Made by a program: the position numbers and the translations under genes. From Escherichia phage vB_EcoM_PhAPEC2, in the sequence record NC_024794.1: a stretch of DNA of 64,000 nt; one strand, 5' to 3'. Below, in pieces: positions 6,596-62,232 of this stretch; the stretch's first letter is position 1; each line of letters begins with the position of its first letter. The notes beneath the pieces are model-generated. The model saw only the letters and a program-made list of their open reading frames with translations. It had not been told where the DNA came from and did not search any database.

Positions 6596-7594
6596 TTATG
6601 ATACTAATTCAATCCATGCAGGACGCAGAACATCTTGCACCATTCGGACTAATTCTTTCTTAACAAGATTCGGATTATCAGATGATGTTAATACAATACC
6701 TTCACGAGAAGTTTCTTCCAGAATATCTTGAACAGTTAATCCCATCACTTTGCCAAAATCTTTTGGCGTTACAGCCCCAATCTTAGAAATCACATTATTA
6801 ACACGATTTAATGTAACATAACAAGCTAGAACATCAAGCAGGTTTTTGTCAATTTCTGTTAATGGAACCTGAGTTTTAATAGGCTTATCAGACTTTTTCT
6901 TTTCACTGAATTTAGAGTTCTTGCACTTAATAGCTACACGAGTACCGTTTGGCAGCCATTTAGGGAAACAGGGCTTCAGAACATAACCTTCTGCCGTATT
7001 ATCGCCAATAACATTAGCATCAAATACACAATTATTTGCTTCTACAAGGTCTTCTGACGCAGTAGCATTATAAGCGGCTAAGACAGAATCAAGGTCGTTT
7101 GGAATCATGATAAGAGAATCAAATGTTCCACGTCCAAGCATTGGTGCCATTTTAAAACCGAATTCATTACAGAAATCTTGCATTTCGTAATCGGTCAAAT
7201 ACGTATTATCACCACTTTCTGTATTGATAAGGATATCGAACACATAAAAATCTTTTTCACCGTAGTCAACACCTTTCTGGATTCCACCACCAGCGAATTC
7301 ACCGAATACTTGATATGATACGGCTCGAGCTGTGTACATGAATTCCTGAACGGCTTTAATAGCTTTATCATACTTCTTGAGTACGATTTCATAACCATAA
7401 AAATCTTCTGCTGGAAGAATAGGGCCTGTGCGCTTGGCGCATGTGACGTTGTCACGTTCAATTATTAACGAGAAGTTAGTCCCATGGATTTTCTCACGTG
7501 CTACCCAAACACCAGTAGTCAAACCATTAGTGTAGAGTTTTTCAATAAACTTAGAGTTGTAGTGGTTTTCAAGACTGCTGTATTTCTTAAACAT
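6596..7594 (-). CDS. rnlB: RNA ligase 2
   Basis: 332 aa; nucleotidyltransferase motif I KIHGTN near N-terminus; matches T4 Rnl2 as recalled; MotA-box middle promoter upstream. Confidence 0.9.
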
Positions 7595-12374: not shown

Positions 12375-12787
12375 TATTGCCCCGCTTCAAATTCACGCAT
12401 ATCCTGGATATGTTTAAGTGCAAAACTACGAGACTTAACTGCGTCAAGTGCACCACTACAGAACTCAAGTAAAATTCCCCAGTATTGTAAAGTAGTCTCT
12501 ATTTTAAGCACATCTTTATCTGCAGCCAGGACAGTTTTCATTTCAGATTTCTCGTATCGGTCCATACTGAATTCATCACCATCACCTCGTCCCGAGTAGT
12601 AGTCTAATCTTGCTTTTAGAGCAGTTTTCTTCTGAGTCTCTATACGCAACATTTCTTTACGAATAAATGAATGCTTACGTAGCCATTTGCTGTATAACTT
12701 AACATTATTCGCCGTCTCATATTGCAACTTTGTCGTATCAATAGCTAAGTCTGCGTCTAACTCTTCCTGTAAATCTTCCAGCTTCAT
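12374..12787 (-). CDS. uvsY: Recombination mediator UvsY
   Basis: Start placed at internal Met (MKLEDLQEEL...) giving 137 aa, same as T4 UvsY; the ORF track gives a longer 164-aa frame. Confidence 0.85.
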   Translation of the reverse strand: MKLEDLQEELDADLAIDTTKLQYETANNVKLYSKWLRKHSFIRKEMLRIETQKKTALKARLDYYSGRGDGDEFSMDRYEKSEMKTVLAADKDVLKIETTLQYWGILLEFCSGALDAVKSRSFALKHIQDMREFEAGQ

Positions 12788-12867
12788 AATATTCTCTCTT
12801 TTAACTAATAATCTCCCGGCTGTATCGGAAGGACCTAAAACCATTATACACAGGTTGCCTTGAAGCA

Positions 12868-27881: not shown

Positions 27882-28130
27882 TTACTTCAGGGTAATAACA
27901 AAATGACGTACTGCTTTACGAGCCGCAGAAGCCAAAGGCTTAGCATATTTCAGTTCATCTTTTGCTTCCAGTTCAGAGGCCAATACAGCTTGGGCAGGGT
28001 TCAGATGTTTGAAATAACGCAGGATTTCCAATGCTTCGGCTTCAACATCAATAGATGCACCGTAGTTTTCGTGACCATTATTCCATGCGTTTCGTTGCAG
28101 TTCAAGAGCGTGTTGTAATTGTTTAATCAT
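27882..28130 (-). CDS. rIII: Lysis inhibition accessory protein rIII
   Basis: 82 aa, same as T4 rIII; sequence matches as recalled; position between 30.x cluster and gene 31. Confidence 0.8.
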   Translation of the reverse strand: MIKQLQHALELQRNAWNNGHENYGASIDVEAEALEILRYFKHLNPAQAVLASELEAKDELKYAKPLASAARKAVRHFVITLK

Positions 28131-28246
28131 TTTAAATTCTCAATTCGAGATAATATTTAGTAGCCACGTTCGTCTGAATTTCACCTTCTTTCGACAAGTC
28201 TCTCAGTTGTAGGCTACCGCTTAGAAGAGTGTTCTCTTCATATAGT

Positions 28247-28254
28247 TATTTATA
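28247..28254 (-). promoter_or_regulatory. Possible late promoter (TATAAATA on minus strand) upstream of rIII
   Basis: Plus strand TATTTATA immediately after gene 31 stop; about 117 nt upstream of rIII start. Confidence 0.4.
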
Positions 28255-28587
28255 TCACTTATAAAGACACGGAATAGCTTTATAGTGGCATGTTACGAAT
28301 TTCTGTTTAATTTCTTTAGGTTGTTTAAGTCCCAAAGCCACAAATGGATGTGGAACATTTCGAATTTGTCCAACTGGTAGTGGAGTCAAATCACCGACTT
28401 CAACAAAACCTTCAGGAACATCAGGACCTACAGAATGAACTACACATAGTTCAGGAACTTCACCTTGAACACGTTTACCAATCACAAGTCCTGATTCGGT
28501 AACTTCTTCATCACCTGCTTGAGCGGGTTCAGAAACCAGAATGACATATTCACCAACAGCACGAATTGGGAGTTGTACTTCAGACAT
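28255..28587 (-). CDS. 31: Co-chaperonin gp31 (GroES-like)
   Basis: 110 aa; T4 gp31 111 aa; MotA-box middle promoter upstream. Confidence 0.85.
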
Positions 28588-28607
28588 CTTATTTCCTTGT
28601 TGTTTGA

Positions 28608-28632
28608 CGATAGATTAATAATACCATACTAT
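28608..28632 (-). promoter_or_regulatory. Middle (MotA-dependent) promoter upstream of gene 31
   Basis: On the minus strand: MotA box TGCTTTA, 12-nt spacer, TATTAT, about 20 nt upstream of gene 31 ATG. Confidence 0.6.
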
Positions 28633-28644
28633 TCGTAAAGCATA

Positions 28645-28953
28645 TTACATAAGAAGCAAACGTTCTACCGGAGTACCATCAACAGAAATTACTTTATCAA
28701 GGCGGAAAGAACGCCACTGACCTAACTCGGTATCGAATGCTCTAACTGATTCACGAGGTTCATAACGAACTTCTGTTGCCGGATTGTTATTTTCATATTT
28801 GACTTCAAGTTCATCGCGCGAAGCAAACATAGTGCGTACCTCGCCGTTAGCCTTTTCAAATACAACACAATGAACGCCTACAGACAGAATAGTTTTAATA
28901 CGTTCACGAAGAACCATAGTTTCTTGTTCAGTTAAAATCATATTATTCACCAC
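28645..28953 (-). CDS. Hypothetical protein (102 aa), 31.1-like
   Basis: ORF between cd and 31. Confidence 0.45.
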   Translation of the reverse strand: MVNNMILTEQETMVLRERIKTILSVGVHCVVFEKANGEVRTMFASRDELEVKYENNNPATEVRYEPRESVRAFDTELGQWRSFRLDKVISVDGTPVERLLLM

Positions 28954-29524
28954 AAAAGTTTCGGATTTGTTCCCAATTCAGAGAACGAAGATTATTACGA
29001 GAGTACTGAATTACTTCAATACCAGCTTGTTTTAGAATGTCTGCCCAATTTTCAGGAGACCGGTCATATAATTCTGCATATACAACCTTTTTAATACCTG
29101 ACTGTGTAATAGCTTTAGTGCAATCAGGACATGGAGAAAGCGTCGTATACAACGTAGCACCTTCAATAGAATTACCTTTACGAGCTGCAAACAAAATTGC
29201 ATTCAATTCCGCATGGATTTCATTATTAGCAGACCATGCACTATGAGCGGCCCGATGTTCTTTAGCCAAAACAAAATTATCCACCCGTCCAAATGCTGTA
29301 GTGCCTTCTTTATGCCCAGCAACGATGACCGGGCTTGGTTTATTCTTCAACCAACCGTTTTCGGATGCATGTTCGCAACAGTTTGTACCACCTGAAGGAG
29401 AGCCATTATAACCTGTAGAAATAATGCGTCCATCTTTTTCAATGACGGCACCAACTTTCCATGAACAACATTTTGATTCTTGAGAAATCAGATATGCAAT
29501 CTGAAGGTATGTGCTAGCTTTCAT
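28943..29524 (-). CDS. cd: dCMP deaminase
   Basis: 193 aa, same as T4 Cd; zinc-binding HAE ... PCPDC deaminase motifs. Confidence 0.9.
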   Translation of the reverse strand: MKASTYLQIAYLISQESKCCSWKVGAVIEKDGRIISTGYNGSPSGGTNCCEHASENGWLKNKPSPVIVAGHKEGTTAFGRVDNFVLAKEHRAAHSAWSANNEIHAELNAILFAARKGNSIEGATLYTTLSPCPDCTKAITQSGIKKVVYAELYDRSPENWADILKQAGIEVIQYSRNNLRSLNWEQIRNFCGE

Positions 29525-30516
29525 TATTGAACCTTATTAATATAAGTTAACAGCTCTTTAGTTTGTTCCCAACTGATGCACGCATCGGTAATGGAAACGC
29601 CATAGGACATATTATCAGAAATTTTTTGATTTCCTTCATGTAGGAATGATTCTATCATAATTCCTTTGACCAAATCATTAGCTGCTAAATTTTTACCAAT
29701 ACCAATTTGATTGCTATAATGCCCATCAGCGTTTGCATGGCTACAGTCAACCATTACATAATGATTCAGACCTACTGCCCTTGCTTTGTTAGAAGCTTCT
29801 TGAATATCAGAAGAATGATAGTTCGGGCCGTTGGTCCCGCCACGCAATACGATATGCGTATTCTGATTACCTTCAGCTTCAACAATGCCTACAGTACCAT
29901 CGACGTCCATACCCATATACCGATGAGGCCAGGCGGCACTATACATCGCGTCTGTAGCTACTTTAATAGAACCATTGGTTGCGTTCTTGAAGCCTACGCA
30001 CATCGGTAGACCTGAAGCAATTTCACGATGTGTCTGACTTTCAGTCGTACGGGCGCCAATAGCAACCCATGAGAAAATACCAGAAAGATACTTAATCGTG
30101 AATGGGTCTAATACTTCAGTTGCTAATGGAAGTCCCATACGTAGAAGTTTACGACACAATGTTCGTGCAACTATAAGACCGTGGTTCATATCAAAACTTC
30201 CGTCAAGATATGGATCATTTACAAGACCTTTCCAACCTACGGTAGTTCGAGGCTTTTCAAAATAAACGCGCATCACTAACAGAACATTAGGAAGACGAGT
30301 TTGAAGTTCAGCCAGACGTTTGCCGTATTCAACAGCAGCAATAGGGTCATGAATTGAACAAGGACCTACAACAATAAGTTTGCGTGGGTCTTCACCATTC
30401 ATAATCGAATTAACTTGTTCGCGATGAGAAGCCACTTGTGATGCGTAAGCTTCCGACAAAGGAATAATCTCAGCCAGTTCTTTTGGAGAAATAAGTTTTC
30501 CGACGACAGGTAACAT
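29524..30516 (-). CDS. 3-deoxy-D-arabino-heptulosonate 7-phosphate (DAHP) synthase, class I (AroG/AroF/AroH-like)
   Basis: 330 aa; motifs VVGPCSIHDP, VMRVYFEKPRTTVGWKGL, GARTTESQ, GFKN, ILRGG, DCSHAN, ESFLHEGNQ, SITDAC align with E. coli AroG catalytic and metal-binding residues (from memory); start overlaps cd stop. Confidence 0.85.
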   Translation of the reverse strand: MLPVVGKLISPKELAEIIPLSEAYASQVASHREQVNSIMNGEDPRKLIVVGPCSIHDPIAAVEYGKRLAELQTRLPNVLLVMRVYFEKPRTTVGWKGLVNDPYLDGSFDMNHGLIVARTLCRKLLRMGLPLATEVLDPFTIKYLSGIFSWVAIGARTTESQTHREIASGLPMCVGFKNATNGSIKVATDAMYSAAWPHRYMGMDVDGTVGIVEAEGNQNTHIVLRGGTNGPNYHSSDIQEASNKARAVGLNHYVMVDCSHANADGHYSNQIGIGKNLAANDLVKGIMIESFLHEGNQKISDNMSYGVSITDACISWEQTKELLTYINKVQ

Positions 30517-30636
30517 AACAATCCTTAGGAGATATAAACAGATTCTGATTCAACAATACCTTTAACCGGATTAGACAGGCTAAGTTGGTAGTGCTCAGAT
30601 TTATGACCATTCTCGATAGTAATTAGATAGCTCTCA

Positions 30637-30873
30637 TTATAGTGTTCCATATACTCGAGTTGCTTCAACAAGACCATCACTGCCTAATTTAAGATTAGTA
30701 ATTTGGTCACCATCTTTAGGATTAACGATTATGAGAAAAGAACGTGGAGATTCTTGAATAACTCGTAATGTTGCATCCTGGAAACGTTCAGATACTTTAT
30801 TAATCAAAGTCTGAGCGAACTCTTTTACTTTAACATGAAATTCTTGAAGCGTGATAGGTTTTTCACTTAACAT
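30637..30873 (-). CDS. Hypothetical protein (78 aa)
   Basis: ORF in cd-pseT intergenic cluster. Confidence 0.4.
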   Translation of the reverse strand: MLSEKPITLQEFHVKVKEFAQTLINKVSERFQDATLRVIQESPRSFLIIVNPKDGDQITNLKLGSDGLVEATRVYGTL

Positions 30874-30934
30874 TCTGTTTTCCTCATTGTGTTGGTAGAG
30901 TCATAGTATCACAACTCCACCATGTTGTAAACCA

Positions 30935-31210
30935 TTAAATTGCTTTGCATTCAATTTTTTGTGTACCGAAATTGATATCACATTGGATAACTAAATCGCC
31001 GTCAAGATCAAATACCACGATGACGTGTGCAGACCCAGGGAGAAGAGTAATAGCAATAGAGTCTACTTGGCCTGGGAGCAAAGCATTGAGTACATGAGTT
31101 ACTTGAGCATGAACTCTGAGTTCGGCCGCATTATCAAGCACTTCAAACATATTATTAGCAATAATCTGACTGAAGACTACCTTTACAATTTCAGAATAAG
31201 TTGGGAACAT
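30935..31210 (-). CDS. Hypothetical protein (91 aa)
   Basis: ORF in cd-pseT cluster. Confidence 0.4.
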   Translation of the reverse strand: MFPTYSEIVKVVFSQIIANNMFEVLDNAAELRVHAQVTHVLNALLPGQVDSIAITLLPGSAHVIVVFDLDGDLVIQCDINFGTQKIECKAI

Positions 31211-31217
31211 AATTACC

Positions 31218-31442
31218 TCAGTGCACAGTATTTACTTTAACTCGAACAACAAATCGCTCGGTCGGTTCACCTACAGGAACAAACTCTACATGATATTCAC
31301 CTTTGTAACGAGTATTCAGATCATTACGAATTTCGGTAAGCTTGTTGATTAATGTAGAACTCATATTAAGTCCCACTAGTTTACGAAGCATTTTGTATGC
31401 TTCATCTTCGATTTCATGATGTTTATCGTACATAGTTTTCAT
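31218..31442 (-). CDS. Hypothetical protein (74 aa)
   Basis: ORF in cd-pseT cluster. Confidence 0.4.
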   Translation of the reverse strand: MKTMYDKHHEIEDEAYKMLRKLVGLNMSSTLINKLTEIRNDLNTRYKGEYHVEFVPVGEPTERFVVRVKVNTVH

Positions 31443-31613
31443 TTAACCATTCAATTGCCTGGTCAACGTTATCAAATATACCGCCGTCCAAACGTTCTTC
31501 ATGCTCATAGTCCAGCACATCAATACCGAACTGTCCATTTACTAAAGGCCAGGCTACAAACAAATATTCTTTATGCTGTTCGATGGCCTCAATCACTTCA
31601 TATAATCGTTTCA

Positions 31614-31614
<1 letters not shown>
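31423..31614 (-). CDS. Hypothetical protein (63 aa)
   Basis: ORF whose start overlaps pseT stop. Confidence 0.4.
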
Positions 31615-32700
<1,086 letters not shown>

Positions 32701-32701
<1 letters not shown>

Positions 32702-33000
32702 TATTTTATTCCTAAGAAAGTTTCAAGAATACGAATGTTATGCTCGCGCCGGTCTTTATTAATTTCAGCAACGTTTTTATTAATTGACGTACTTCTAACG
32801 TTTGAAGAAATAAATTTAATCATATGACTTTTGAGTTGTTGCAAATCCAACCCTTTTTCTTTAGCAGCTTTACGAAGAGCTTTACCTGCTTCATCTAGTG
32901 CCTTTGCTGCATCTTTATCATAATTGCCAAGTGACATTCCACGGCAGATATCAATATACTCATCCGACCGTTTGATGTAATTCTCTAGTAATGTTTTCAT
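32701..33000 (-). CDS. Hypothetical protein (99 aa)
   Basis: ORF with GAGGAA SD; preceded by a TTTACA-N17-TATAAT early promoter. Confidence 0.5.
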
Positions 33001-33028
33001 TTAGATTTCCTCAATTATCCATAGGAGC

Positions 33029-33058
33029 ATTATACTCTGCTCCCGAGAGTTTGTAAAC
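33029..33058 (-). promoter_or_regulatory. Early promoter with stem-loop overlapping the -10 element (PeSL-like)
   Basis: Minus strand TTTACA-N17-TATAAT; the -10 is embedded in inverted repeat GGAGCA/TGCTCC; leader with GAGGAA SD. Confidence 0.6.
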
Positions 33059-33282
33059 TATTTTACTAAAGATTCAATATACTCATGAAGAGCTTTAGTC
33101 GCTACTGCCCACTTATTCTGATATTCATTTTTCAGATTAGCACGAGACTGAACTAACAAGCGGTCATTAGTAGGAGGCAAAGATTCTAATCGTTGAATCT
33201 GGCGCCCATAAATCATAGCCGCCATTTCAGATTCATAGATAAGCCCTTTAATATATTCATGTTGTTCTTTAGTCATTGGCAT
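33058..33282 (-). CDS. Hypothetical protein (74 aa)
   Basis: ORF downstream of the o-spanin gene. Confidence 0.4.
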   Translation of the reverse strand: MPMTKEQHEYIKGLIYESEMAAMIYGRQIQRLESLPPTNDRLLVQSRANLKNEYQNKWAVATKALHEYIESLVK

Positions 33283-33563
33283 TTTTCCTCTTTTAAACCA
33301 CTACGATAATAACATAACATAGTCTTCTGGTCATGTACATATCTTTTTACGTCGTTTAACCAGATACGAAATTCTTGAGAGTCTTCAAATGGCATTCCAA
33401 CCCATGGATTACCATCAATAACCTTTACTTGCCATTTCTGGTTATATTCAACAATAGATTCAGGCCATGACGGATGTAAAGTTTCTTTAGGGCTTAAGGG
33501 CACATCCTGGGCACATCCAGCCAAAATGCCAATAGATAATACAACTGCGGTTAATTTAATCAT
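33273..33563 (-). CDS. Outer-membrane spanin (o-spanin) lipoprotein, PseT.2-like
   Basis: 96 aa; signal peptide with lipobox LAGC; overlaps the i-spanin gene stop, the typical spanin pair arrangement. Confidence 0.65.
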   Translation of the reverse strand: MIKLTAVVLSIGILAGCAQDVPLSPKETLHPSWPESIVEYNQKWQVKVIDGNPWVGMPFEDSQEFRIWLNDVKRYVHDQKTMLCYYRSGLKEEKCQ

Positions 33564-33916
33564 TCTGAGAGCTTCCTGAGGTCTTCTGCAAAGGAATCGA
33601 AGGACTTGTTGATTTGTTTTTCGACCAATCCTGGTTTACTTGCCACCACGTTCTTCTTCTTCGAATCCTTACGGAGCTTTTCATTTTCGGCCTTAAGTTG
33701 GTCAACTAAAACACGGTTCTTATAAGTCATTTCTTCGATTGACCGATATTGAACCTTGAAGTCGTCTAATACTTTAGCATTGTTTTTAGCGGTCTCTTTG
33801 ACAGAAGCTAATTCAGTATTCAACGAATCAACTTTGTTGTTTAAGACAACTATTGTTACCGTAGAAACTAGAGCAAAAGCTGCTACTATAGCATAAATCG
33901 GATTTACTTTAAGCAT
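33560..33916 (-). CDS. Inner-membrane spanin (i-spanin), PseT.3-like
   Basis: 118 aa; N-terminal TM helix IYAIVAAFALVSTVTIVVL then a charged coiled-coil-like periplasmic domain. Confidence 0.65.
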   Translation of the reverse strand: MLKVNPIYAIVAAFALVSTVTIVVLNNKVDSLNTELASVKETAKNNAKVLDDFKVQYRSIEEMTYKNRVLVDQLKAENEKLRKDSKKKNVVASKPGLVEKQINKSFDSFAEDLRKLSE

Positions 33917-34404
33917 GTTTTAATAATCTCAATGATTTCATCTCGGGATAATCCATTGATAAGAACGGTTTTCAAACCATCACACTGGATTTTGTACGAT
34001 TCAAACAATACACACAACTCTTCTGCTGTATGATACGGACTTGAAATTCCGAGGCGGTTGAATTTGTCGGTAAGAGGGTCGCAAATAATGTAGAATTTTA
34101 TACCTGCGATATGTACGTTTGGTTGACTAATATTAATGAACACATTAGCGTCATATTTAGTCAAATTGTTTTGAAGAAATTCTACCATGGCATTAACTGC
34201 TTCCGGCATTGCTTCACGTTTCTCTTCAGCGTATCGGGTGGAATACTCTTTTTGTTTTACTTTCTTTTTAAGATTTTTGGCCAGTGTAACACGTAGGTCA
34301 GTAAGATAACCAACTGGACGTCCTTTCTTAAAGACCCGGATTCCGTCAGTTGTATCTCCAAAAGCGGTTACGACCATATCGTTAGTAATCAATTGCATAT
34401 TCAT
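33904..34404 (-). CDS. alc: Alc, inhibitor of host transcription
   Basis: Start placed at internal Met with GAGGAG SD 6 nt upstream, giving 166 aa (T4 Alc 167 aa). Confidence 0.75.
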   Translation of the reverse strand: MNMQLITNDMVVTAFGDTTDGIRVFKKGRPVGYLTDLRVTLAKNLKKKVKQKEYSTRYAEEKREAMPEAVNAMVEFLQNNLTKYDANVFINISQPNVHIAGIKFYIICDPLTDKFNRLGISSPYHTAEELCVLFESYKIQCDGLKTVLINGLSRDEIIEIIKTCLK

Positions 34405-34466
34405 AATTTTCTCCTCGTGTTGTTGATAAAAGCCATAGTAGCACCTTCCTTGGTGTTTGTAAACCA

Positions 34467-35600
<1,134 letters not shown>

Positions 35601-35647
35601 TCAGTTAGTTTTTTTTAAATTGTACCACAATCCTTGTGGTGTGTAAA

Positions 35648-36058
35648 CTACTTTTTCTTATGTTGGATATTCCAAGGCGGGTTGAACTTTTTGATAAAAA
35701 GCGGTTCTTCAAGGTCCATTGTTGCGATGGTCATTGAACCAAGTTCGTTGGTGACTGAAAGGTCAAAACATTGGCGGGCCCAGAATTCAACCTTTTTTCC
35801 TTGCATTAAGGCATCCAAAATCATAAGTGATTTTCTTGAATCTGAAGTCTGGTCTTTTCGATTTATGGCTGTTCGATAATAGTTAATGCGTTTCTTTAAA
35901 TTCTTGGTTTTACCAATATACACAAGTTCGTCATCTATAGCAATAGCGTATATGACATTTTTCTTATTAGGGACATCAACTGTTTTAATTGTTGCATCTT
36001 CTAATAGCTCCAATTCTGTATATTTAATAAAGGAATATTCGGCGGCAATATCTTTCAT
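35648..36058 (-). CDS. denA: Endonuclease II (GIY-YIG family)
   Basis: 136 aa, same as T4 EndoII; GIY-YIG-like VIYAIAIDDELVYIGKTKNLKKRINYY. Confidence 0.8.
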   Translation of the reverse strand: MKDIAAEYSFIKYTELELLEDATIKTVDVPNKKNVIYAIAIDDELVYIGKTKNLKKRINYYRTAINRKDQTSDSRKSLMILDALMQGKKVEFWARQCFDLSVTNELGSMTIATMDLEEPLFIKKFNPPWNIQHKKK

Positions 36059-36066
36059 AATAAAGT

Positions 36067-36080
36067 GGGACCGAAGTCCC
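36067..36080 (-). other. Intercistronic tetraloop hairpin between nrdB stop and denA start
   Basis: GGGAC-CGAA-GTCCC (UUCG on minus) 9 nt upstream of denA ATG; no clear U-tract. Confidence 0.5.
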
Positions 36081-36084
36081 GTCC

Positions 36085-37263
36085 TTAGAAATATTTTTTG
36101 TATGAATTGATTACATTTTGGTCTACATCATTATCAATTTGTGCGACAAGATAAGAACTGATTTCAACTTCCTGAGGAGCTGCTTGAACTAAATCAGAGT
36201 TCAGATATTCACGAATCCAAGGATACGGATGCTTGGTCGGAGCATCAGTGATTGGGCATGGCAAACCACACTGTTTCATACGAGACACAGTCAAGTAATC
36301 AACAAAAGCACACATACTCTGTGTATTGATACCCGGACATGTACCGTCTTTAAAGAGGTGTGCAGCCCATTCCTTCTCTTGTCTATTTACTTCCATAAAA
36401 ATGTCAACTGCTTCTTGTTCACATTCTTTAGCAATTTGAACCCACTCATCACCATCGGTACCGGACTGAAGTTGACGGATAATGTACTGAGTACCCTTGA
36501 GGTGGAGTTGTTCGTCACGAGCGATGAACTTCATAATCTTTGCATTACCTTCCATGATTTCCATGTTCTTATGGAAGTTGAAAGTACATGCAAAAGATAC
36601 ATAAAAACGAATAGCTTCTAAGGCGTTAATAACGTGTAAGCAGAGATAAAGAGACTTCATTAATGCACGTTTACATTCTTCCAAATGCATAAGACTATTT
36701 GAATATGCATCCAAATCATATTCATTTTCGGAAAAACATTTAAAAATTTCTTTAGCATTTTCCCATTCACGTGTTTTAACTAGAACATCATCATAATATT
36801 TGCCGATTGATTCCGCACGTTTCATAATTGCTTCATCTAATACAATCTCATCAAATACCTTCGATGGATCAGTATAAAGATTTCGCATAATATGAGTATA
36901 TGAACGAGAGTGAATAGTTTCACTGAATGTCCATGTAGCAACCCATGTATCTAATGAAGGGTCAGAAATCAGTGCCATAAGTACCGCAGATGGGGCCCTG
37001 CCTTGGATAGAATCTAATAATGATTGATACTTAAGGTTGTTTGTAAAGATGTCCTGTTGGAACTGAGGAAGCTTATTGAACTGCGCAGAGTCCAACATCA
37101 AGTTTACCTCTTCAGGGCGCCAGAAAAATGACAATTGCTTTTCGGTCAAATCTTCAAAAACTTTATGGCGTTGAATATCATAACGCGCAATACCAAGACC
37201 TGAACCAAAAAACATAGGTTCTTTTAAAACATCGACTTGTTGTGTGTTAAAAACGGTACTCAT
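36085..37263 (-). CDS. nrdB: Ribonucleotide reductase small subunit (uninterrupted, no intron)
   Basis: 392 aa single ORF; di-iron ligand regions present; synteny nrdA-nrdB-denA. Confidence 0.9.
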   Translation of the reverse strand: MSTVFNTQQVDVLKEPMFFGSGLGIARYDIQRHKVFEDLTEKQLSFFWRPEEVNLMLDSAQFNKLPQFQQDIFTNNLKYQSLLDSIQGRAPSAVLMALISDPSLDTWVATWTFSETIHSRSYTHIMRNLYTDPSKVFDEIVLDEAIMKRAESIGKYYDDVLVKTREWENAKEIFKCFSENEYDLDAYSNSLMHLEECKRALMKSLYLCLHVINALEAIRFYVSFACTFNFHKNMEIMEGNAKIMKFIARDEQLHLKGTQYIIRQLQSGTDGDEWVQIAKECEQEAVDIFMEVNRQEKEWAAHLFKDGTCPGINTQSMCAFVDYLTVSRMKQCGLPCPITDAPTKHPYPWIREYLNSDLVQAAPQEVEISSYLVAQIDNDVDQNVINSYKKYF

Positions 37264-37317
37264 TATATTTTCTCACTTAGTTTTAACTCATCCATGAGTA
37301 AATTATAATCAAAAGTC

Positions 37318-39573
37318 TTAAAGCTTACAAGCAGAGCAATCTTCAGCTTTAGGTGTTTCTAATTCATAGTCATCTGTACCTGACCCATCACGAGTGTTAT
37401 GATAGTAGAGATTTTTTCCGCCAAAGTACCAGAAGTAAAGCAGATCGTCAAGCATTACTGACATTGGCACTTTACCTTTCTCAAAGACTGAAGGGTCGTA
37501 GTATGTATTAGCAGAAGCAGATTGGCACACCCATTTTAACATGATAACAACTTGTGTCAGATAAGGCTTATTACCTTTCTTAGCGAGTTTCCACGCATAG
37601 TCATAAAGACCCATGTTGTGTTCAATATTAGGAACTACTTGACGGAAATTACCTTCTTTAGATTCTTTAATACTTACTGGGCCACGAGGTGGTTCAATAC
37701 CATTTGTGCTATTTGAGACCTGGCTGCTTGATTCGCATGGCATGAGAGCACTGAGTGTACTGTTACGGATCCCGTGTTCTTTAAGTTCGGCTCGTAGTTC
37801 TTCCCAGTCACAGACATAGTTCGGGGCTGCGATTTGGTCAATCTTTTTATTGTACCAGTCGATAGGTAATTCGCCTCTAGACCATTTAGTGTCTGAATAA
37901 TACTCGCAACGTCCTTTTTCTTTGGCAAGTTTGATTGACGCTTTGATAAGGCCATATTGTAATCTCTCAAACAATTCATGAGTCAAATCGTTAGCATCTT
38001 CGTATGAAGCAAAGTTAGAAGCCAACCAGGCTGCATAGTTAGTAACACCAACACCTAGGTTTCGACGCTTTTTAGCTTTTAAAGCTTCTGGAACCGGATA
38101 GTCTTGATAGTCTAACAAGTTATCAAGTGCACGTACTTGCACTTCAGCAAGTTCATTAATTTTATCTTGGTCTTGCCAATCAAATTTATCAAGAACAAAA
38201 GCAGAAAGAGTGCATAAACCAATTTCAGCATCAGGACCATTCACATCATTAGTTGGAATAGCGATTTCACAACATAAGTTACTCTGACGAATTGGAGCTT
38301 TTTCACGAATAAATGGAGTGTAGTTATTCGTGTTATCAACAAACTGTGGATAAATTCGAGCAGTGCCAGAACGTTCAGTCATGAACAATTCAAAGAGTTC
38401 TAGTGCTTTGATTCTTTTCTTTCTGATTGTTGGGTCTTTTTCAGCTTTCTCATAAAGCTCACGGAATTTATCTTGATCTTCAAAGAATGAGTAATATAGT
38501 TCGCCTGACATTTCGTGAGGGCTAAATAAAGTAATATAATCATTTTTACCAAGGCGTTCCATCATAAGGTCATTAATCTGAATTCCGTAGTCCATATGTC
38601 GAATACGGTTTTCATCCACACCTTTGTTATTTTTCAGAACTAATAGGTTCTCTACTTCTAAGTGCCACATCGGATAATACGCTGTAGCAGCACCGCCGCG
38701 AATACCACCTTGAGAACAAGATTTTACTGCAGTTTGGAAATGTTTCCAGAATGGAATAACACCTGTATGTCGAACTTCACCCATACCGATCTTAGAACCT
38801 TCTGCACGAAGCATGCCAACGTTGATACCGATACCAGCTCGTTTAGAAATATATTCGATAATTGATGCTGAAGTTTTGTTAATAGATTTTAACGAATCAC
38901 CGGCTTCAATAACTACACAACTAGAGAACTGGCGAGTCGGAGTACGAGCACCTGCCATAATTGGAGTAGGCAATGAAACTTGATGAGTAGAAACGGCATC
39001 ATAAAAACGAATAATATGTTTCAAACGGTCACGAGTTTCGTCTTGATGTAAAGCCATACCAATAGCCATGATAGCAAACTGTGGAGTTTCATAAATCTTC
39101 CCAGTTGTTTTATCTTTAACTAGATATTTTTCTTTAAGCTGCATAGCACCAGCATAAGTCAGGTCAAAGTCTCGTTCGTGTTTAATCTGTGAATCGAGAT
39201 AAATGATTTCTTCTGCTGAATATTGAGACAACAACTCAGGGTCATATTTGCCTTCATTAACACAATAAGAAATATGGTCGATAAAAGCAGGAGGTTCAAA
39301 CTGACCATACACATCTTTACGAAGTGCAAACATTAGCCCTTTGGCGGCGACATACTGATAATCAGGTTCTTCGACAGAAATCGAGTTAGCTGCAACTTTA
39401 ATACAAATCTTCTGGATATCTTTGGTGCTCATCCCATCGACAAGATGGGTCTTAATTTCTTCGTACAATTCATATGGGTCAATTTGTGTTCCTTCACATT
39501 GCCAAGTTAAGACTTGAATAATTTTCTGTGCATCAAAATTTTGGGATACACCACTGCTCTTAGTTACTTGCAT
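37318..39573 (-). CDS. nrdA: Ribonucleotide reductase large subunit
   Basis: 751 aa; class Ia RNR active-site regions and C-terminal Cys pair (CSACKL). Confidence 0.9.
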   Translation of the reverse strand: MQVTKSSGVSQNFDAQKIIQVLTWQCEGTQIDPYELYEEIKTHLVDGMSTKDIQKICIKVAANSISVEEPDYQYVAAKGLMFALRKDVYGQFEPPAFIDHISYCVNEGKYDPELLSQYSAEEIIYLDSQIKHERDFDLTYAGAMQLKEKYLVKDKTTGKIYETPQFAIMAIGMALHQDETRDRLKHIIRFYDAVSTHQVSLPTPIMAGARTPTRQFSSCVVIEAGDSLKSINKTSASIIEYISKRAGIGINVGMLRAEGSKIGMGEVRHTGVIPFWKHFQTAVKSCSQGGIRGGAATAYYPMWHLEVENLLVLKNNKGVDENRIRHMDYGIQINDLMMERLGKNDYITLFSPHEMSGELYYSFFEDQDKFRELYEKAEKDPTIRKKRIKALELFELFMTERSGTARIYPQFVDNTNNYTPFIREKAPIRQSNLCCEIAIPTNDVNGPDAEIGLCTLSAFVLDKFDWQDQDKINELAEVQVRALDNLLDYQDYPVPEALKAKKRRNLGVGVTNYAAWLASNFASYEDANDLTHELFERLQYGLIKASIKLAKEKGRCEYYSDTKWSRGELPIDWYNKKIDQIAAPNYVCDWEELRAELKEHGIRNSTLSALMPCESSSQVSNSTNGIEPPRGPVSIKESKEGNFRQVVPNIEHNMGLYDYAWKLAKKGNKPYLTQVVIMLKWVCQSASANTYYDPSVFEKGKVPMSVMLDDLLYFWYFGGKNLYYHNTRDGSGTDDYELETPKAEDCSACKL

Positions 39574-42177: not shown

Positions 42178-43080
42178 TTATAGACCAGCTAACAGATCAT
42201 CGAGGTCACCATCATCAGAGGATGAGGTAGAGCTCATGAAGTCGTCTTCAGTTTTTGCAGAACTAAAGGCTTCCATGTCTTTATCAAAATCGTCAAGGTC
42301 AGAAGCAACTTTATCTGCAACAGAAGCTGCGGCAGCTGCTGCACCACCAAGAGCGGCAGTACCAAGAACCTTAGCGAAAGATTCATTTAATTTTTCAAAG
42401 GATTTGAACTGGTCTTTAGCCGTCAAAGTAGTAAGATCTACCATCTGGTCATATAGTTCTTTCTGGAATGCTTCGTCATTAATACGAGGAATTTCAGATT
42501 GACCCAAGAATTTAGATTCATCATAGTTGCTAAAACCGGAAACCTGCTTAGCTTTCAGAACGAAGTTAGCACCTTCAAACGGACAAGTAACATCAACTGG
42601 AGTTTCACCCATTTCGGTATCAACTGCAATCATTGCATTGATTTTGTCCCAAATCTTTTTACCGAAACGATATTTAAATACTTTACCTTCGTTATCTGGA
42701 GCTTGAGGGTCTTTAACAACCAGAATATTAGCCCAATAAGAAGTTTTACGTTTCAGTTGAGAATATTCAGCTTTGTTGGTATTGTACAGGTCATTTTTAC
42801 TAATGTACTGACATACAGGACAAGAGTCATAATCACCATGTGTAGAAGAGCAATTTTCAATATACCATTTACCATTTTTCTTGAAACCGTGGTTAACAAG
42901 AATTGCAAATGGTAGTGCATCATCAGTTTTTGCTGGCAAGAAACGAATTACCGCTTGACCATTACCTGATGCATCTAGCTTCAGCTTCCATTCGCCTTTA
43001 TCTTCTGAAGAGAAACCTTTGTTACCATTCAGTTTAGCCATTTGAGCAGCGAGGTCAGCAGTAGATTTACGTTTAAACAT
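42178..43080 (-). CDS. 32: Single-stranded DNA-binding protein gp32
   Basis: 300 aa (T4 gp32 301 aa); zinc-binding Cys/His region; acidic C-terminus; AU-rich autoregulatory leader upstream. Confidence 0.9.
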
Positions 43081-45488: not shown

Positions 45489-48400
45489 ATGGTTGACATC
45501 AAACGTAAGTTCAGGGCCGAAGATGGTCTTGACGCAGGCGGTGATAAGATAGTTAACGTTGCGCTTGCTGACCGCACAGTTGGCACCGATGGCGTGAACG
45601 TTGACTTTTTGGTGCAAGAAAACACCGTACAGAATTATGACGATACGCGCGCGTATACAAAAGATTTTATTGTTCTTTATGATAATCGTTTTTATCAAGC
45701 TTTAAGTGATATTCCAGCTCCGGCAGGCCCTTTCTCTTTGGCTAAATGGAAGGCAACTCGTACAGATGCAGAATGGATTACAGTTCAAGGCGGAGATTTC
45801 CAATTATCAGTAGGTAACTCTATTGCGGTTGATACTTCAGCTGGCACTGATATTAATTTCACTTTGCCTCAAAATCCTTTAGATGGCGATACAGTTATTT
45901 TGTCTGATATTGGCGGTAGAGTAGGCTATGTAAAAGTTCAAATTACTGCAGCGGCTCAAAGTATTGTAGACTTTAGAGGACAACAGGTTCGTTCAGTTTT
46001 AATGACGCACCCAAAATCTAAAATGGTCTTCATTTTTAGCAACCGCCTATGGCAAATGTATGTTTCCGATTACGAACGTAATGCAGTCACAGTAACTCCT
46101 GCCACGCCATATCAAGCGCAACCTAATGATTTTATCATTCGACGTTTTACATCAGCCGCTCCTATTAATATTACATTGCCTCGTAATGCTAATAATGGCG
46201 ATATTATTAATTTAGTGGATTTAGACAAATTAAACCCATTATATCACACAATTGTCAAAACTTACGATGAAACAACTTCTATACGAGAAGCTGGTGTTCA
46301 TGTAGCAGAAGGACGTAATACTGCGGAAGCATTCTTTGTTTATGATTCTGCCAATAGTTTATGGCGTGTTTGGGAAGGTGACCAGAAATCTCGTTTACGT
46401 ATAGTTCGTAATGATACTGATTTACGCCCTAATGAAGAAGTTCTTGTTTTTGGAACTAATAATGATACAATCTCGACGGTAAATCTTACTTTGCCTACAG
46501 ATATTTTGTCTGGCGATACTGTTAAAATATCGTTGAATTATATGCGTAAAGGGCAAACTGTAAAAATTAAAGCTGCTGAAGGCGATACAATTGCTAGCAG
46601 TATTTCTTTATTACAGTTCCCAAAACGTTCGGAGTATCCACCTGATGCACAATGGGTTTCTGTTAGTGAGCTGGAATTTAATGGTGATACTTCGTATGTA
46701 CCTGTACTTGAGTTAGCTTATATAGAAGATTATTCATCTGAAACAAAATATTGGGTAGTTCAACAAAACACCGTAACCGTTGAACGAGTCGATGCATCGA
46801 GCAATACAACTCGAGCTCGTTTAGGTGTTATTGCTCTTGCTTCTCAAGCGCAAGCAAATGTTGATTTAGAAAATGCTCCTGGTAAAGAACTGGCTATTAC
46901 TCCGGAAACATTAGCAAATCGTACAGCAACTGAAACTCGTCGTGGTATTGCTCGTATTGCAACAACTGCACAAGTTAACCAGAATACCGATTTTGCATTC
47001 CAAGACGACTTGATTATTTCTCCTAAGAAATTGAACGAACGTACAGCAACTGAAACCCGTAGAGGTGTTGCTGAAGTTGCAACTCAGGCTGAAACTAATG
47101 CTGGAACAGATGACACCACTATTATTACTCCTAAGAAATTGGATGCCCGTCAAGGTTCTGAAGTTTTATCTGGTATTGTAAAATACACATCTACGACTGG
47201 TACTACAGCTGCTACTATTCGTGGTAATGCTGGGACTAATGTTTATAACAAAGCCGTAGATAATTTAACTATTTCTCCAAAGGCCCTTGACCAATATAAA
47301 GCTACCCCTACTCAGCAGGGTGCAGTAATTCTTGCTATTGAAAGTGAAGTTATCGCCGGCGAATCACAAGCCGGTTGGGCTAATGCTGTAGTGACCCCTG
47401 AAACTCTGCATAAGAAAACTTCTACTGATGGACGTATTGGTTTAATTGAAATTGCTACGCAAGCAGAAACTAATGATGGGACCGATTATACACGTGCAGT
47501 AACGCCTAAGACATTAAATGATAGGAGAGCGACGGAAGGATTATCCGGCATAGCCGAAATTGCTACGCAAGTTGAATTTGATACTGGAACTGATGATACT
47601 CGTATCTCGACTCCACTGAAAATTAAAACTCATTTTGATTCTTCTGACCGTACCAGTGTTAATTCTGATTCCGGACTTATTGAAGAAGGAACCTTGTGGA
47701 ACCATTATACTCTTGATATTTCTAAAGCAAATGAAACACAACGTGGTACACTTCGCGTAGCGACCCAGGCAGAATCTAATGCAGGAACTTTAGATGATGT
47801 TCTTATTACTCCTAAAAAGCTTTTAGGGACTAAGTCCACTGAAACGTCTGAAGGCGTAATTAAGGTTGCTACTCAGGCTGAAACTGTAACAGGAACTTCT
47901 GCTAATACTGCTGTATCACCTAAGAATTTAAAATGGATTGTTCAATCAGAACCATCATGGACTGCTACTACGGCAATTCGTGGATTCGTTAAAACTTCAT
48001 CTGGTTCTATTACATTTGTTGGTAATGATACAGTTGGTTCAACACAATCTTTAGAATCATATGAGAAAAATAGCTATGCGGTATCACCATATGAATTAAA
48101 CCGTGTACTTGCTAACTACTTACCGTTGAAAGCTAAAGCAGCTGATAGTAATTTGTTAGATGGTCTAGATTCTCTTCAGTTCATCCGTAGAGACATCGAC
48201 CAGACGGTTAATGGTTCTTTAAGTCTTACTAAACAGACCAACCTGAGTGCTCCTTTAGTATCTACAAGCACTGCTTCTTTTGGTTCCGAAGCATCTGTTA
48301 CTCGTAGATTAACTCTTAATGACTCTAGCGGTTCCGAAATAGTTTTCACTAAAGGAACCCAATCTCTTAGTAATAAAGAGAATTTCGTTGTTAGAGCATG

Positions 48401-58751: not shown

Positions 58752-58808
58752 TTTATTTCTCCAAATTAGTATTTGTTTTGATAGGTCTATAATATCATGT
58801 TTGAAGCA
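58744..58808 (-). repeat. Promoter/leader cassette copy A (upstream of and including the motA start codon)
   Basis: Shares 21-nt and 33-nt identical blocks with 59065-59129 (TTAGACATTTTATTTCTCCAA ... TTTTGATAGGTCTATAATATCATGTTTGAAGCA). Confidence 0.7.
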
Positions 58809-59071: not shown

Positions 59072-59129
59072 TTTATTTCTCCAATTTGGTTGTTTTGTTT
59101 TGATAGGTCTATAATATCATGTTTGAAGC
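59065..59129 (-). repeat. Promoter/leader cassette copy B (upstream of and including start of ORF 58856..59071)
   Basis: Direct repeat of cassette A about 320 bp away; both genes begin ATG TCT AAA. Confidence 0.7.
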
Positions 59130-60926: not shown

Positions 60927-61373
60927 TTAGTAACTCTGCAGAATGAATTTGAAATTATCTGCCAGAAGACGGTTCATTTCAGTGAGTGTTTGATATTCTG
61001 ATGTATGGTTGCGAGTGAATGCCAGAGCCAATTGTCCTTTACCGTAACCAGTAGTCAGTGGTTTCATGTTCTTAGCTGCAACAAAGATTACATCATATTC
61101 AATATTGTTAGTGCCCATAGTACGAGCCAGTTGCGAACGACCTTGACGAATGTGAGAAAGAATTGCATCTAACCCTTGTTTAGAACGTTGACGTCCTACA
61201 AAGAATCGTGCTGCTACTTGTCGCCAATCAGATGAACCTTTAACAAAGAAGTAAAAACCTTCACGAGAACGAAACTCTTTAGAAACTTCGGAACCGTATT
61301 CGCCATTACGAACTACTGCAACAACTTCACCGCCAACTGCCAGAAGGTCTTTACGAGTTAAATATTTAGACAT
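60927..61373 (-). CDS. ndd: Nucleoid disruption protein Ndd
   Basis: 148 aa; C-terminal region [34 protein letters not shown] matches T4 Ndd as recalled. Confidence 0.85.
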
Positions 61374-61417
61374 GCTAATTTCCTCAATTGATTAATGTTT
61401 TTGTAATCCATGAGAGC

Positions 61418-61446
61418 ATTATACTCTGCTCTCAAGAGTTTGTACA
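61418..61446 (-). promoter_or_regulatory. Early promoter upstream of ndd, with stem-loop overlapping -10 (PeSL-like)
   Basis: Minus strand TGTACA / 17 nt / TATAAT; -10 embedded in inverted repeat GAGAGCA/TGCTCTC; about 40 bp near-identical to the element at 33020-33060. Confidence 0.6.
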
Positions 61447-61449
61447 ATT

Positions 61450-61650
61450 TTATTCGGCTATATCAGAACGTTCAAAAAGCTCTTCAACGGTTAAACATTC
61501 GGTGTCATCCTCAATAAAGAATCGGGTCCAACACGTTGGGGCGATGCAGTTATGAGTTTGTCCGGCTATAGAAGCTACACGAATAAGCTGCTGGCCATTA
61601 TTCAGGACAAATTTTTCACCAATTTCAACATCTTTAAAAAGCTTAGCCAT
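61450..61650 (-). CDS. Hypothetical protein (66 aa)
   Basis: ORF with early-type promoter upstream. Confidence 0.45.
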   Translation of the reverse strand: MAKLFKDVEIGEKFVLNNGQQLIRVASIAGQTHNCIAPTCWTRFFIEDDTECLTVEELFERSDIAE

Positions 61651-61900
61651 TTTGTTTTCCTCTTGATTTGATGTGATTACTATACCATAATCCTATCGTG
61701 ATGTAAACAATTAAATTACATTAAAATATGTTAAAGCCAACCATGTTCCAGTGAACGAACATGCAATGTAAAAACCAGTATCACAAATTGTTCTTAGTAC
61801 AATAAGAAGTGCATTTTTCATAAGTACCTCAATGCAATTGAAAATATTATACAAATCATAGGGATACTAAGCAACCATATTCCAATCCACATTTTAGAGC

Positions 61901-62164: not shown

Positions 62165-62232
62165 GATGTTATCCTCTTTTAGATAGGACTACTATATCAT
62201 AGTCCTACTTAGTTGTAAACACTTTTATGAAA

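Follow-up and report, generated by a model that had tools for sequence, protein, structure and literature searches.

Two PeSL-like promoter hairpins, beside pseT.1 and ndd, in Escherichia phage vB_EcoM_PhAPEC2 belong to a dispersed sequence family of T-even phages

The window analysed here is a stretch of 64,000 nucleotides from the genome of Escherichia phage vB_EcoM_PhAPEC2 (NC_024794.1), and the subject is a short intergenic element that occurs in it twice, once between pseT.1 and a homologue of RB69 ORF231c (copy 1) and once between ndd.1 and ndd (copy 2), with an early-type promoter sequence embedded in an inverted repeat. BLAST searches with 2.5 kb around each site returned RB69-type Mosigvirus relatives, the closest being ST2 (99.5% identity for copy 1 and 98.3% for copy 2), with RB69 itself at 98.0% and 97.2%, respectively. 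The genes flanking both copies all lie on the minus strand. On the plus strand, copy 1 reads GAGCATTATACTCTGCTCCCGAGAGTTTGTA (33025-33055) and copy 2 reads GAGCATTATACTCTGCTCTCAAGAGTTTGTA (61414-61444), and their 39-nucleotide cores (33019-33057 and 61408-61446) share 34 of the 39 bases (87% identity). A preliminary description of the sequence had called copy 1 nearly identical to an element upstream of ndd, and both the sequences at these positions and the annotation of ndd bear this out.

Read on the coding strand, copy 1 runs TAG-TTTACA-AACTCTCGGGAGCAGAG-TATAAT-GCTCCTATGGATAATTGAGGAAATCTAAATG. The stop codon TAG of pseT.1 (33058..33060, closing an open reading frame (ORF) at 33058..33282, which the RB69 annotation gives as pseT.1; this and all following features of the two copies are on the minus strand) directly abuts the -35 hexamer TTTACA (33052..33057), which together with the -10 hexamer TATAAT (33029..33034) and a 17-nucleotide spacer gave 11 of 12 consensus matches in a promoter scan. 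The spacer contains the family-invariant AACTCTC (33045..33051, from the sequence alignment), which includes CUCU, followed by the 5′ arm of a hairpin, GGGAGCA (33038..33044), identified by folding and by covariation in the family. TATAA of the -10 lies in the loop GAGTATAA (33037-33030), and its last T opens the 3′ arm TGCTCCT (33023..33029, likewise from folding and covariation), the outer pair of the stem being G·U. Behind the stem the alignment places an A-rich box, GGAUAAUUGAG (33010..33020), which overlaps the Shine-Dalgarno (SD) sequence GAGGAAA (33012-33006) of a gene starting with ATG at 33000. This gene is a 99-amino-acid ORF (32701..33000) homologous to RB69ORF231c (PHROG 2364), and is followed by ORF230c (32510-32701) and then by pseT.

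Copy 2 runs TAA-AAT-TGTACA-AACTCTTGAGAGCAGAG-TATAAT-GCTCTCATGGATTACAAAAAC...GAGGAAATTAGCATG on the coding strand. The stop codon TAA of ndd.1 (61450..61452; ORF 61450..61650, RB69 annotation) ends three nucleotides before the -35 hexamer TGTACA (61441..61446), and a 17-nucleotide spacer again separates this from TATAAT (61418..61423); the promoter scores 11 of 12 matches when the -35 is measured against the T4-type hexamer TTTACA. The invariant AACTC (61440-61436) is followed by the last T of CTCT (61435) and then by the first base of the stem, also T (61434). The 5′ arm TGAGAGCA (61427..61434) and the 3′ arm TGCTCTCA (61411..61418), both supported by folding and covariation, enclose a loop that holds the -10 except for its final T, with which the 3′ arm begins. 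A RegB-type box, GGAUUACAAAA (61399..61409, by alignment), the SD sequence GAGGAAA (61385-61379) and the ATG at 61373 follow, and the gene behind them is ndd (60927..61373), encoding the nucleoid disruption protein of 148 amino acids (RB69 annotation; PHROG Ndd-like, 1.8e-56).

The order of parts is the same in both copies, namely stop codon, -35, 17-nucleotide spacer, TATAAT within an inverted repeat of 7-8 bp, GGAU A-rich box, SD and ATG, and the stretch upstream of each is A-rich. The -10 had been described as sitting in the loop and stem of an inverted repeat, which is true of both copies, the final T opening the 3′ arm in each, and the two stems differ by a compensatory change from G-C to A-T. 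Judged by sequence, both are near-consensus sigma70/T4-type early promoters and are presumed active; by standard sigma70 geometry, transcription is predicted to start at about 33022 for copy 1, 7 nucleotides past the -10, and at about 61411-61409 for copy 2.

Some further features of these neighbourhoods may be recorded here. As annotated in RB69 RefSeq, ORF231c (MSLGNYDK...) seems to start too far downstream, the ORF in the window beginning 63 nucleotides upstream at the ATG at 33000 behind GAGGAAA (window 32937-33000) and spanning PHROG 2364 from end to end (1-99 against 1-105 of 105). A sigma70-like sequence, GTGACA-18-TATACT, lies antisense within this ORF (32931-32960, plus strand; 10 of 12 matches) and is probably due to chance. 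Between ORF270c and ndd.1, about 250 nucleotides (window 61651-61900) carry no annotated gene in RB69, which is unusually long for such a tightly packed region; apart from an early promoter (-10 at 61684), they contain no more than a 47-amino-acid ORF starting with TTG.

A degenerate 31-nucleotide pattern allowing up to three mismatches matched exactly these two sites in the 64 kb and nothing in 100 dinucleotide-preserving shuffles. The genome-wide motif search that had been proposed was run as a mismatch scan and with a covariance model, R1, over the window, positions 1-100 kb of RB69 and about 100 kb of T4, and recovered few loci: five strong copies scoring 75-82 bits, the next match being at 28 bits. 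Beyond the window these comprise RB69 copies between ORF075c and 55.2 (42462-42500) and between frd.3 and e.6 (72016-72054), and a T4 copy between motB.1 and motB (7175-7219) that scores 81.7 bits and differs from the nearer of the two window cores by 5 mismatches in 39 nucleotides. The pairing of copies at two loci made in the preliminary description thus stands for both sites and falls short in number, an RB69-type genome holding at least four (pseT slot, ndd, 55.2 and e.6). BLAST with the 71 nucleotides of copy 1 gave matches at 1259 places in 730 phage records, the listed Mosigvirus genomes having 3-4 each, and a pattern scan of IMG/VR gave 56 loci; about a third of the distinct IMG/VR matches were coding-sequence look-alikes (for example ACAAACTCTATCAAGACAAGTATAAT) with neither stem nor GGA box, and these were left out. 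Annotated examples come from Mosigvirus, Tequatrovirus, Dhakavirus (AnYang and JS98-like phages) and Gaprivervirus (VR26 and CJ20), and at least eight different genes stand behind the module (motB, 55.2, ndd, e.6, the ORF231c family and three unnamed ORFs). The element does not belong to a known curated RNA family, as no Rfam 15 family reached its gathering score anywhere in the window and nothing around copy 1 rose above chance. A truncated family copy was noted in RB69 between modB and modA (12785-12823, minus strand), in which TAGTGTACAAACTCT is kept, three nucleotides take the place of the hairpin and TATAAT, and GATGATGATACTATA comes next; this copy may be half a module left by decay or recombination.

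The motif could simply be the early-promoter consensus, and would then be expected at most early promoters. This was rejected, because only two of the nine intergenic early-type promoters in the window carry the sequence ACAAACTCT...GAGTATAAT, these being the two copies, and only five strong R1 copies were found overall. A stable hairpin across the -10 is more widespread, being present at 6 of the 9 intergenic early promoters in the window and at 3 of 33 other consensus matches (Fisher p = 0.001). The hairpin-over-(-10) anatomy is therefore general among early promoters here and the 31-nucleotide sequence is specific to the family. Examples with other stems are TAGGACTA/TAGTCCTA (-10 at 62196), GATAGGGCTA/TAGCCCTATC (41649) and GGTACAGG/CCTGTACC (26913), and the weaker R1 matches likewise fell on early promoters whose hairpins keep this register, in T4 (upstream of dmd, and between frd.2 and frd.1) and in RB69 (at 67.9 kb and 19.0 kb).

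Along the minus strand of the window, unrelated hairpins span or abut the -10 boxes at 62196, 61684, 41649, 35624 and 26913, and a second sequence class of such hairpins has the form TATAGT-AG(N)CCTATC-AAA. Downstream of gene 52, two near-identical early promoter/leader repeats about 320 bp apart (58760-58800 and 59080-59125, minus strand), of the form GTTTAC-N16-TATTAT-AGACCTATCAAAAC...GGAGAAATAAAATG, have no hairpin over the -10 (z ~0), unlike most early promoters here, and their SD region GGAGAAAUAAA resembles a RegB site.

Local minimum free energies of the two window hairpins were -12.2 kcal/mol (copy 1) and -13.9 kcal/mol (copy 2), with shuffle fractions of 0.013 and 0.000. Conservation of the structure was measured in a gap-free alignment of 19 distinct copies (A1), in which a helix of eight pairs was scored. 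Of all cells of this helix, 97.4% pair, compared with 84.6% in column shuffles (the observed value being reached by 0 of 500) and 35-53% when the 3′ partner is slid; six of the eight pairs change on both sides, and the covariation score is 0.512 against 0.257 in shuffles (again reached by 0 of 500). The stems of the family include GGGAGCA/TGCTCC(U/C), GAGAGCA/TGCTCTC, GAGAGA/TCTCTC, GGGACCA/TGGTCCC and GGGGTCA/TGACCCC, and at the motB loci a stepwise series leads from GGGACCA/TGGTCCC through GGGGCCA/TGGTCCC to GGGGTCA/TGACCCC, in which A-U passes through G·U to G-C and C-G through U·G to U-A. Wobble cells in A1 number 16 sense-strand G·U or U·G against 2 C·A, both of the latter at the outermost pair. 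These results indicate that the hairpin is under selection as a structure of the sense strand.

The same data bear on the simplest account of the two sites, that only the promoter has a function, the copies having arisen recently from one strong promoter by duplication or gene conversion and the repeat being incidental. The 87% identity over 39 nucleotides would suit it, as would the occurrence of one stem at different loci of one genome, which is compatible with conversion: GAGAGCA/TGCTCTC stands at both ndd and e.6 in Mosigvirus (RB69 copies), with different stems at the orthologous loci in other genera, and one Gaprivervirus genome (IMG/VR 2706795408) has GGGGTCA/TGACCCC at motB as well as at ndd. 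Such sharing hints at conversion between copies. We nevertheless regard this account as very improbable, since the family is conserved in four genera at partly orthologous loci, its stems vary by compensation at six of eight pairs with wobble intermediates and a degree of covariation that no shuffle reaches, and its GGA box is conserved and, in T4, experimentally functional.

As transcripts starting at the cassette itself would begin downstream of the 5′ arm, the selected hairpin most likely acts in read-through RNA. An alternative is that the inverted repeat acts on the promoter DNA, as a cruciform, as a hairpin in the non-template strand or as a dyad site for a phage or host protein, and in this way modulates early promoters or switches them off. 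In favour of this, the -10, where the promoter DNA melts, is enclosed by the repeat; -10 hairpins are enriched at intergenic early promoters and keep the same register in unrelated early promoters of T4 and RB69; and the mechanism of early-promoter shut-off is, according to reviews, not understood. The hairpin might on these grounds be a handle for shut-off, which the wobble asymmetry disfavours: neither a cruciform nor a sequence-specific dyad site would produce it, as sense-strand G·U pairs correspond to A·C mismatches on the antisense strand. Stems of 7-8 bp with an 8-nucleotide loop are moreover poor substrates for cruciform extrusion, and a single dimeric protein recognising a specific sequence is hard to reconcile with the three different stems tolerated in one genome (GGGAGCA, GAGAGCA and GAGAGAT). 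In the T4 spacer between ndd.1 and ndd (47042-47101, minus strand), the place of window copy 2 is taken by a GC-rich hairpin, GGCCGT...GCGGCC, whose loop contains the degenerate -10-like sequence TATTCA, the spacing being degenerate as well, so that a hairpin and a GGAG box are retained without a recognisable promoter; behind the hairpin, TTGGAGTAGAAAATAA (TTGGAGTAGAAAA) leads into the same SD/ATG context as in VR26. A hairpin that outlives its promoter also argues against an action on promoter DNA, which we hold to be improbable, if somewhat less so than incidental duplication.

Termination or attenuation of upstream transcription would place the function of the hairpin in RNA, the cassette then being a terminator-promoter pair that insulates its neighbours. 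In favour of this, termination was the role first proposed for the stem-loop of the RB49 element PeSL211/210 and was shown there with a reporter, an RB49 stem-loop lowering lacZ read-through to much the same degree as rrnB T1 (Arbiol 2010, PMC2839356), and the hairpins of the present family are selected in the sense strand, lie 12-18 nucleotides past the upstream stop codon and, with the helix extended, are fairly stable (-14 to -20 kcal/mol). The stems are, against this, short and mixed in AT and GC, unlike the polyG/polyC stems of RB49, and no U-tract stands behind either, the following sequences being UAUGGAUAAU in copy 1 and UGGAUUACAA in copy 2, with only 3 U in the next 8 nucleotides. 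An intrinsic (Rho-independent) terminator was rejected on this ground; a terminator scan of 28000-38000 gave none at copy 1, and copy 2 was judged from its sequence. In T4, pseT is a delayed-early gene that relies on read-through, and strong termination at copy 1, which lies ahead of pseT, would be counter-productive. A role as terminator or attenuator is on balance unlikely, though the least so of the alternatives considered.

In addition to the hairpin, all 19 distinct copies carry GGA(G/U) and an A-rich run 1-3 nucleotides past the stem, a part that the preliminary description does not mention. The T4 motB box, GGAGUAUAAAA, lies directly behind its hairpin and is the positional homologue of GGAUAAUUGAG in copy 1. 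After infection, motB mRNA is cut efficiently by the phage RNase RegB; the cut in this box, which falls between G and A and is stimulated by S1, has been seen in vivo as well as in vitro, GGAGUAUAAAA-3′ forms the end of the shortest substrate derived from motB, and a primer-extension stop for the 'motB promoter' has been shown (Durand 2006, PMC1702504). Promoter use and RegB cleavage are thus taken from the literature for the T4 motB copy alone, which belongs to the same sequence family; the window copies differ from it in preceding other genes (ORF231c and ndd) and in having GGAU boxes with imperfect tails. By our reading, the in vitro substrate of Durand 2006 yields an 18-nucleotide 5′ fragment and hence is without the 5′ arm, and read-through RNA with the full hairpin falls outside that paper (PMC1702504). 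The consensus for a strong RegB site is GGAGRAYARAA, GGAU is cut only when a strict A-rich tail stands behind it (the T4 cases being 55.2 and motB.2), and GGAG can be protected from RegB by secondary structure (Durand 2006, PMC1702504). RB69 encodes regB. The RB69 55.2 box GGAUAAUAAAA and the T4 motB box fit the consensus well; the copy 1 box is a weak match, deviating at positions 8 (U) and 11 (G), and the copy 2 box deviates at positions 5 (U) and 7 (C), U at 4 and C at 7 being unfavourable.

A further conserved part, ACAAACTCT in the spacer, is constant in 19 of 19 distinct copies, partly by construction, as the pattern used for collection required it. CUCU is absent from the spacers of the other early promoters in the window, is complementary to GGAG, and corresponds to no requirement of sigma70 that we know of. 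Partition-function folding of the read-through sequence gave pairing of CUCU with GGAN at a probability of 0.9-1.0 in all GGAG-type copies, about 0.87 in copy 2 and about 0.47 in copy 1, and the T4 motB read-through fold reached 13 bp with one bulge (-19.7 kcal/mol). Sequestration of the SD, as in T4 e, soc and 49, was considered and rejected, the SD lying outside the conserved helix and being unpaired or weakly paired in folds of the full spacer.

Differences in gene content coincide with the module. Where pseT.1 abuts pseT in T4, RB69-type phages have the module, ORF231c and ORF230c placed exactly between the two; where 55.3 abuts 55.2 in T4, RB69 has ORF075c and the module; and the e.6 copy of RB69 is preceded by frd.3, which is not a neighbour of e.6 in T4. 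In Dhaka- and Gapriverviruses the module at the pseT locus is orthologous and the gene directly behind it varies, being either the ORF231c homologue alone or a gene of 160 or 153 amino acids followed by that homologue, and JS98-like genomes have three different genes behind the same upstream ORF and module. In VR26 the order is ndd.1, module A, a 114-amino-acid ORF, module B and ndd, with 26 identical bases common to A and B, compared with ndd.1, one module and ndd at the same place in RB69-type phages. This tandem arrangement is the configuration from which excision was demonstrated for the RB49/phi1 elements (Arbiol et al., PMC2839356). The comparative check that had been suggested therefore shows that gene content does change at these elements, in T4, VR26 and the Dhaka- and Gapriverviruses, and it is the T4 arrangement without the pseT copy and its two ORFs, the VR26 tandem and the variable gene at the pseT locus that back the proposed modular recombination, for which a mechanism can be suggested.

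Published PeSLs start, within AT-rich sequence, at the preceding stop codon and comprise an early promoter of the sigma70 type, a stem-loop that mostly lies between -35 and -10 or over the -10, an SD and an ATG (Arbiol 2010, PMC2839356). Both window copies are likewise intergenic at a stop codon, with a promoter (by sequence), a stem-loop over the -10 and an SD and ATG, and are repeated beside variable genes, so that the label 'PeSL-like' given in the preliminary description is apt for the anatomy. It denotes an analogue rather than a sequence homologue of the RB49/phi1 PeSLs: neither copy, with its GGGAGCA or GAGAGCA stem, is homologous in sequence to their consensus. The two groups are alike in being repeated in the genome, in having ORFan neighbours in hyperplastic regions, in ORFs between tandem copies and probably in indels at the elements; the RB49/phi1 PeSLs have TTGACA as -35 and polyG/polyC stems, compared with TTTACA or TGTACA, mixed stems of 7-8 bp and no U-tract in the window, and for them alone have terminator activity and the formation of mini-circles been shown (PMC2839356). 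The T-even elements have themselves been called analogues, not homologues, of the RB49 PeSLs (Arbiol 2010, PMC2839356). The published description of PeSLs includes no RegB-type box, and the term 'RegB' is absent from PMC2839356. PeSL-like elements at T-even internal-protein loci (Repoila 1994, as summarised in PMC2839356) share T4-type early promoters and variable small genes, and have AT-richer stem-loops of variable size at different loci.

Comeau 2014 (PMC4122927) extended the PeSL concept to PST/T4, with TTTACW-N17-TAYWAT promoters and AGNA-loop-TCNT stems, the latter resembling the second hairpin class of the window, TAGGACTA...TAGTCCTA. These elements and those of nt-1/KVP40 are described there as T-even early promoters with stem-loops, associated with gene swaps in the ndd region (ndd.4/.5 against ORF268/269); according to a figure legend, the stem-loops stand immediately before the promoter, and RB69-type phages are not treated. 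Neither a covariation analysis of the stem nor a link to RegB was found in the parts of PMC4122927 that were consulted.

What was observed here, namely the sequence anatomy, the family membership, the covariation and the gene-content differences at the module, is probably best explained if each site is one copy of a dispersed early regulatory cassette of about 60 bp, PeSL-like and found in T-even phages, that combines a promoter, a selected hairpin, a RegB-type box and a recombination patch. Under this explanation we infer promoter activity and RegB sensitivity for the window copies, a role for the hairpin and a mechanism of recombination. The promoter, presumably a strong sigma70 one, would transcribe the next early genes, ORF231c-ORF230c-pseT from copy 1 and ndd from copy 2, starting about 7 nucleotides past the -10. 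As the 5′ arm precedes this start, the hairpin should form only in RNA coming from upstream promoters, or in the non-template DNA strand, and could in this way tell read-through transcripts from those born at the cassette. In read-through RNA the helix would extend through pairing of the spacer, CUCU:GGA(G/U), and mask the RegB box; alternatively, the box might be cut in such RNA and leave the upstream cistron ending with a protective 3′ hairpin. In transcripts born at the cassette the 5′ arm would be missing and the box exposed close to the 5′ end. The 5′-OH produced by RegB is a substrate for phosphorylation by T4 polynucleotide kinase (PNK), opening the RNA to RNase E/G (published review); an exposed box may accordingly send cassette-born RNA through a RegB cut, a 5′-OH and phosphorylation by PNK into decay by RNase E/G. 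The conserved block of 40-60 bp would, finally, serve as a homology patch for recombination through which genes are gained, lost or swapped at its borders.

That the promoter-embedded hairpin is a switch by which RegB distinguishes transcripts by origin, whether through masking or through a 3′-protected upstream fragment, and consigns cassette-born RNA to decay, is a tentative proposal that we consider possible. The same logic is known from T4 e, soc, 49 and I-TevI (PMC3014915), where the promoter lies inside the sequence encoding the 5′ strand of a helix, so that read-through RNA folds and internal transcripts lack the arm. In those genes the promoter is late or middle and the SD/AUG is sequestered, whereas the cassette has an early promoter and an SD outside the core helix, and its sequestered element, if any, would be the RegB-type box. 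The T4 ndd leader, with its hairpin GGCCGU/GCGGCC directly before an unmasked UUGGAGUAGAAAA and a decayed promoter, suggests the 3′-protection variant, which is also consistent with the reported attack on RegB products from their 3′ ends.

Several points weigh against this interpretation. Masking and 3′ protection predict opposite cleavage of read-through RNA. Only the local hairpin is significantly stable: folds of the whole spacer are not significantly stabler than shuffles (z = -1.8 for copy 1 and -1.2 for copy 2), and with longer flanks the centroid retains the core stem alone. The CUCU:GGA extension is weak in copy 1 and lies beyond the covariation test, the required ACAAACTCT making its conservation partly circular. 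As G·T pairs are tolerated in single-stranded DNA too, a DNA hairpin in the non-template strand is a formally possible alternative to RNA. The window boxes are GGAU with imperfect A-rich tails, and RegB may not cut them; their sensitivity is uncertain because GGAU is cut only before the strict consensus. Start sites, promoter strength and RNA ends of the window copies are predictions for PhAPEC2, and a literature search returned no usable T4 map of transcript starts or 3′ ends. Regarding recombination, three of the four RB69 copies stand next to genes that are absent from T4 or not adjacent there, which is suggestive and carries no statistical claim. In the JS98-like Dhakaviruses, a 475-nucleotide indel directly behind the module of the pseT locus (L022 2555-3038 against L063 2560-2564) is bounded by TATGA and not by modules; it comprises a whole gene of 160 amino acids, from ATG to ATG, with the 5-nucleotide repeat TATGA at both starts. 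Module-to-module recombination was rejected as its cause, and these ends point to microhomology instead.

The shuffling of accessory genes in T4-like phages has been proposed to take place at PeSL-type cassettes, which would be its joints. A family of this kind is present in the RB69 lineage and reaches into T4 (motB), Dhakavirus and Gaprivervirus. The element type was already described, and the two window sites are a further, well-supported example, to which the present analysis adds the size and spread of the family, the covariation and strand evidence, the integrated RegB-type box and the transcript-origin model. To our knowledge, this is the first covariation evidence for sense-strand selection of such a stem, earlier stems having been known only as predictable folds. 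Two separate literatures are joined, the conserved 3′ box of the cassette being a textbook RegB substrate, and this bears on why RegB cuts only some GGAG-containing transcripts and on how immediate-early and read-through messages are handled. If true, the transcript-origin switch would explain how the same GGAG may be open to RegB in one transcript and escape it in another, and the cassette would be a mobile unit of promoter, insulator and mRNA-lifetime setting. The model R1 offers a compact marker of the boundaries of early transcription units, and likely of recombination joints, in the genomes of Tevenvirinae.

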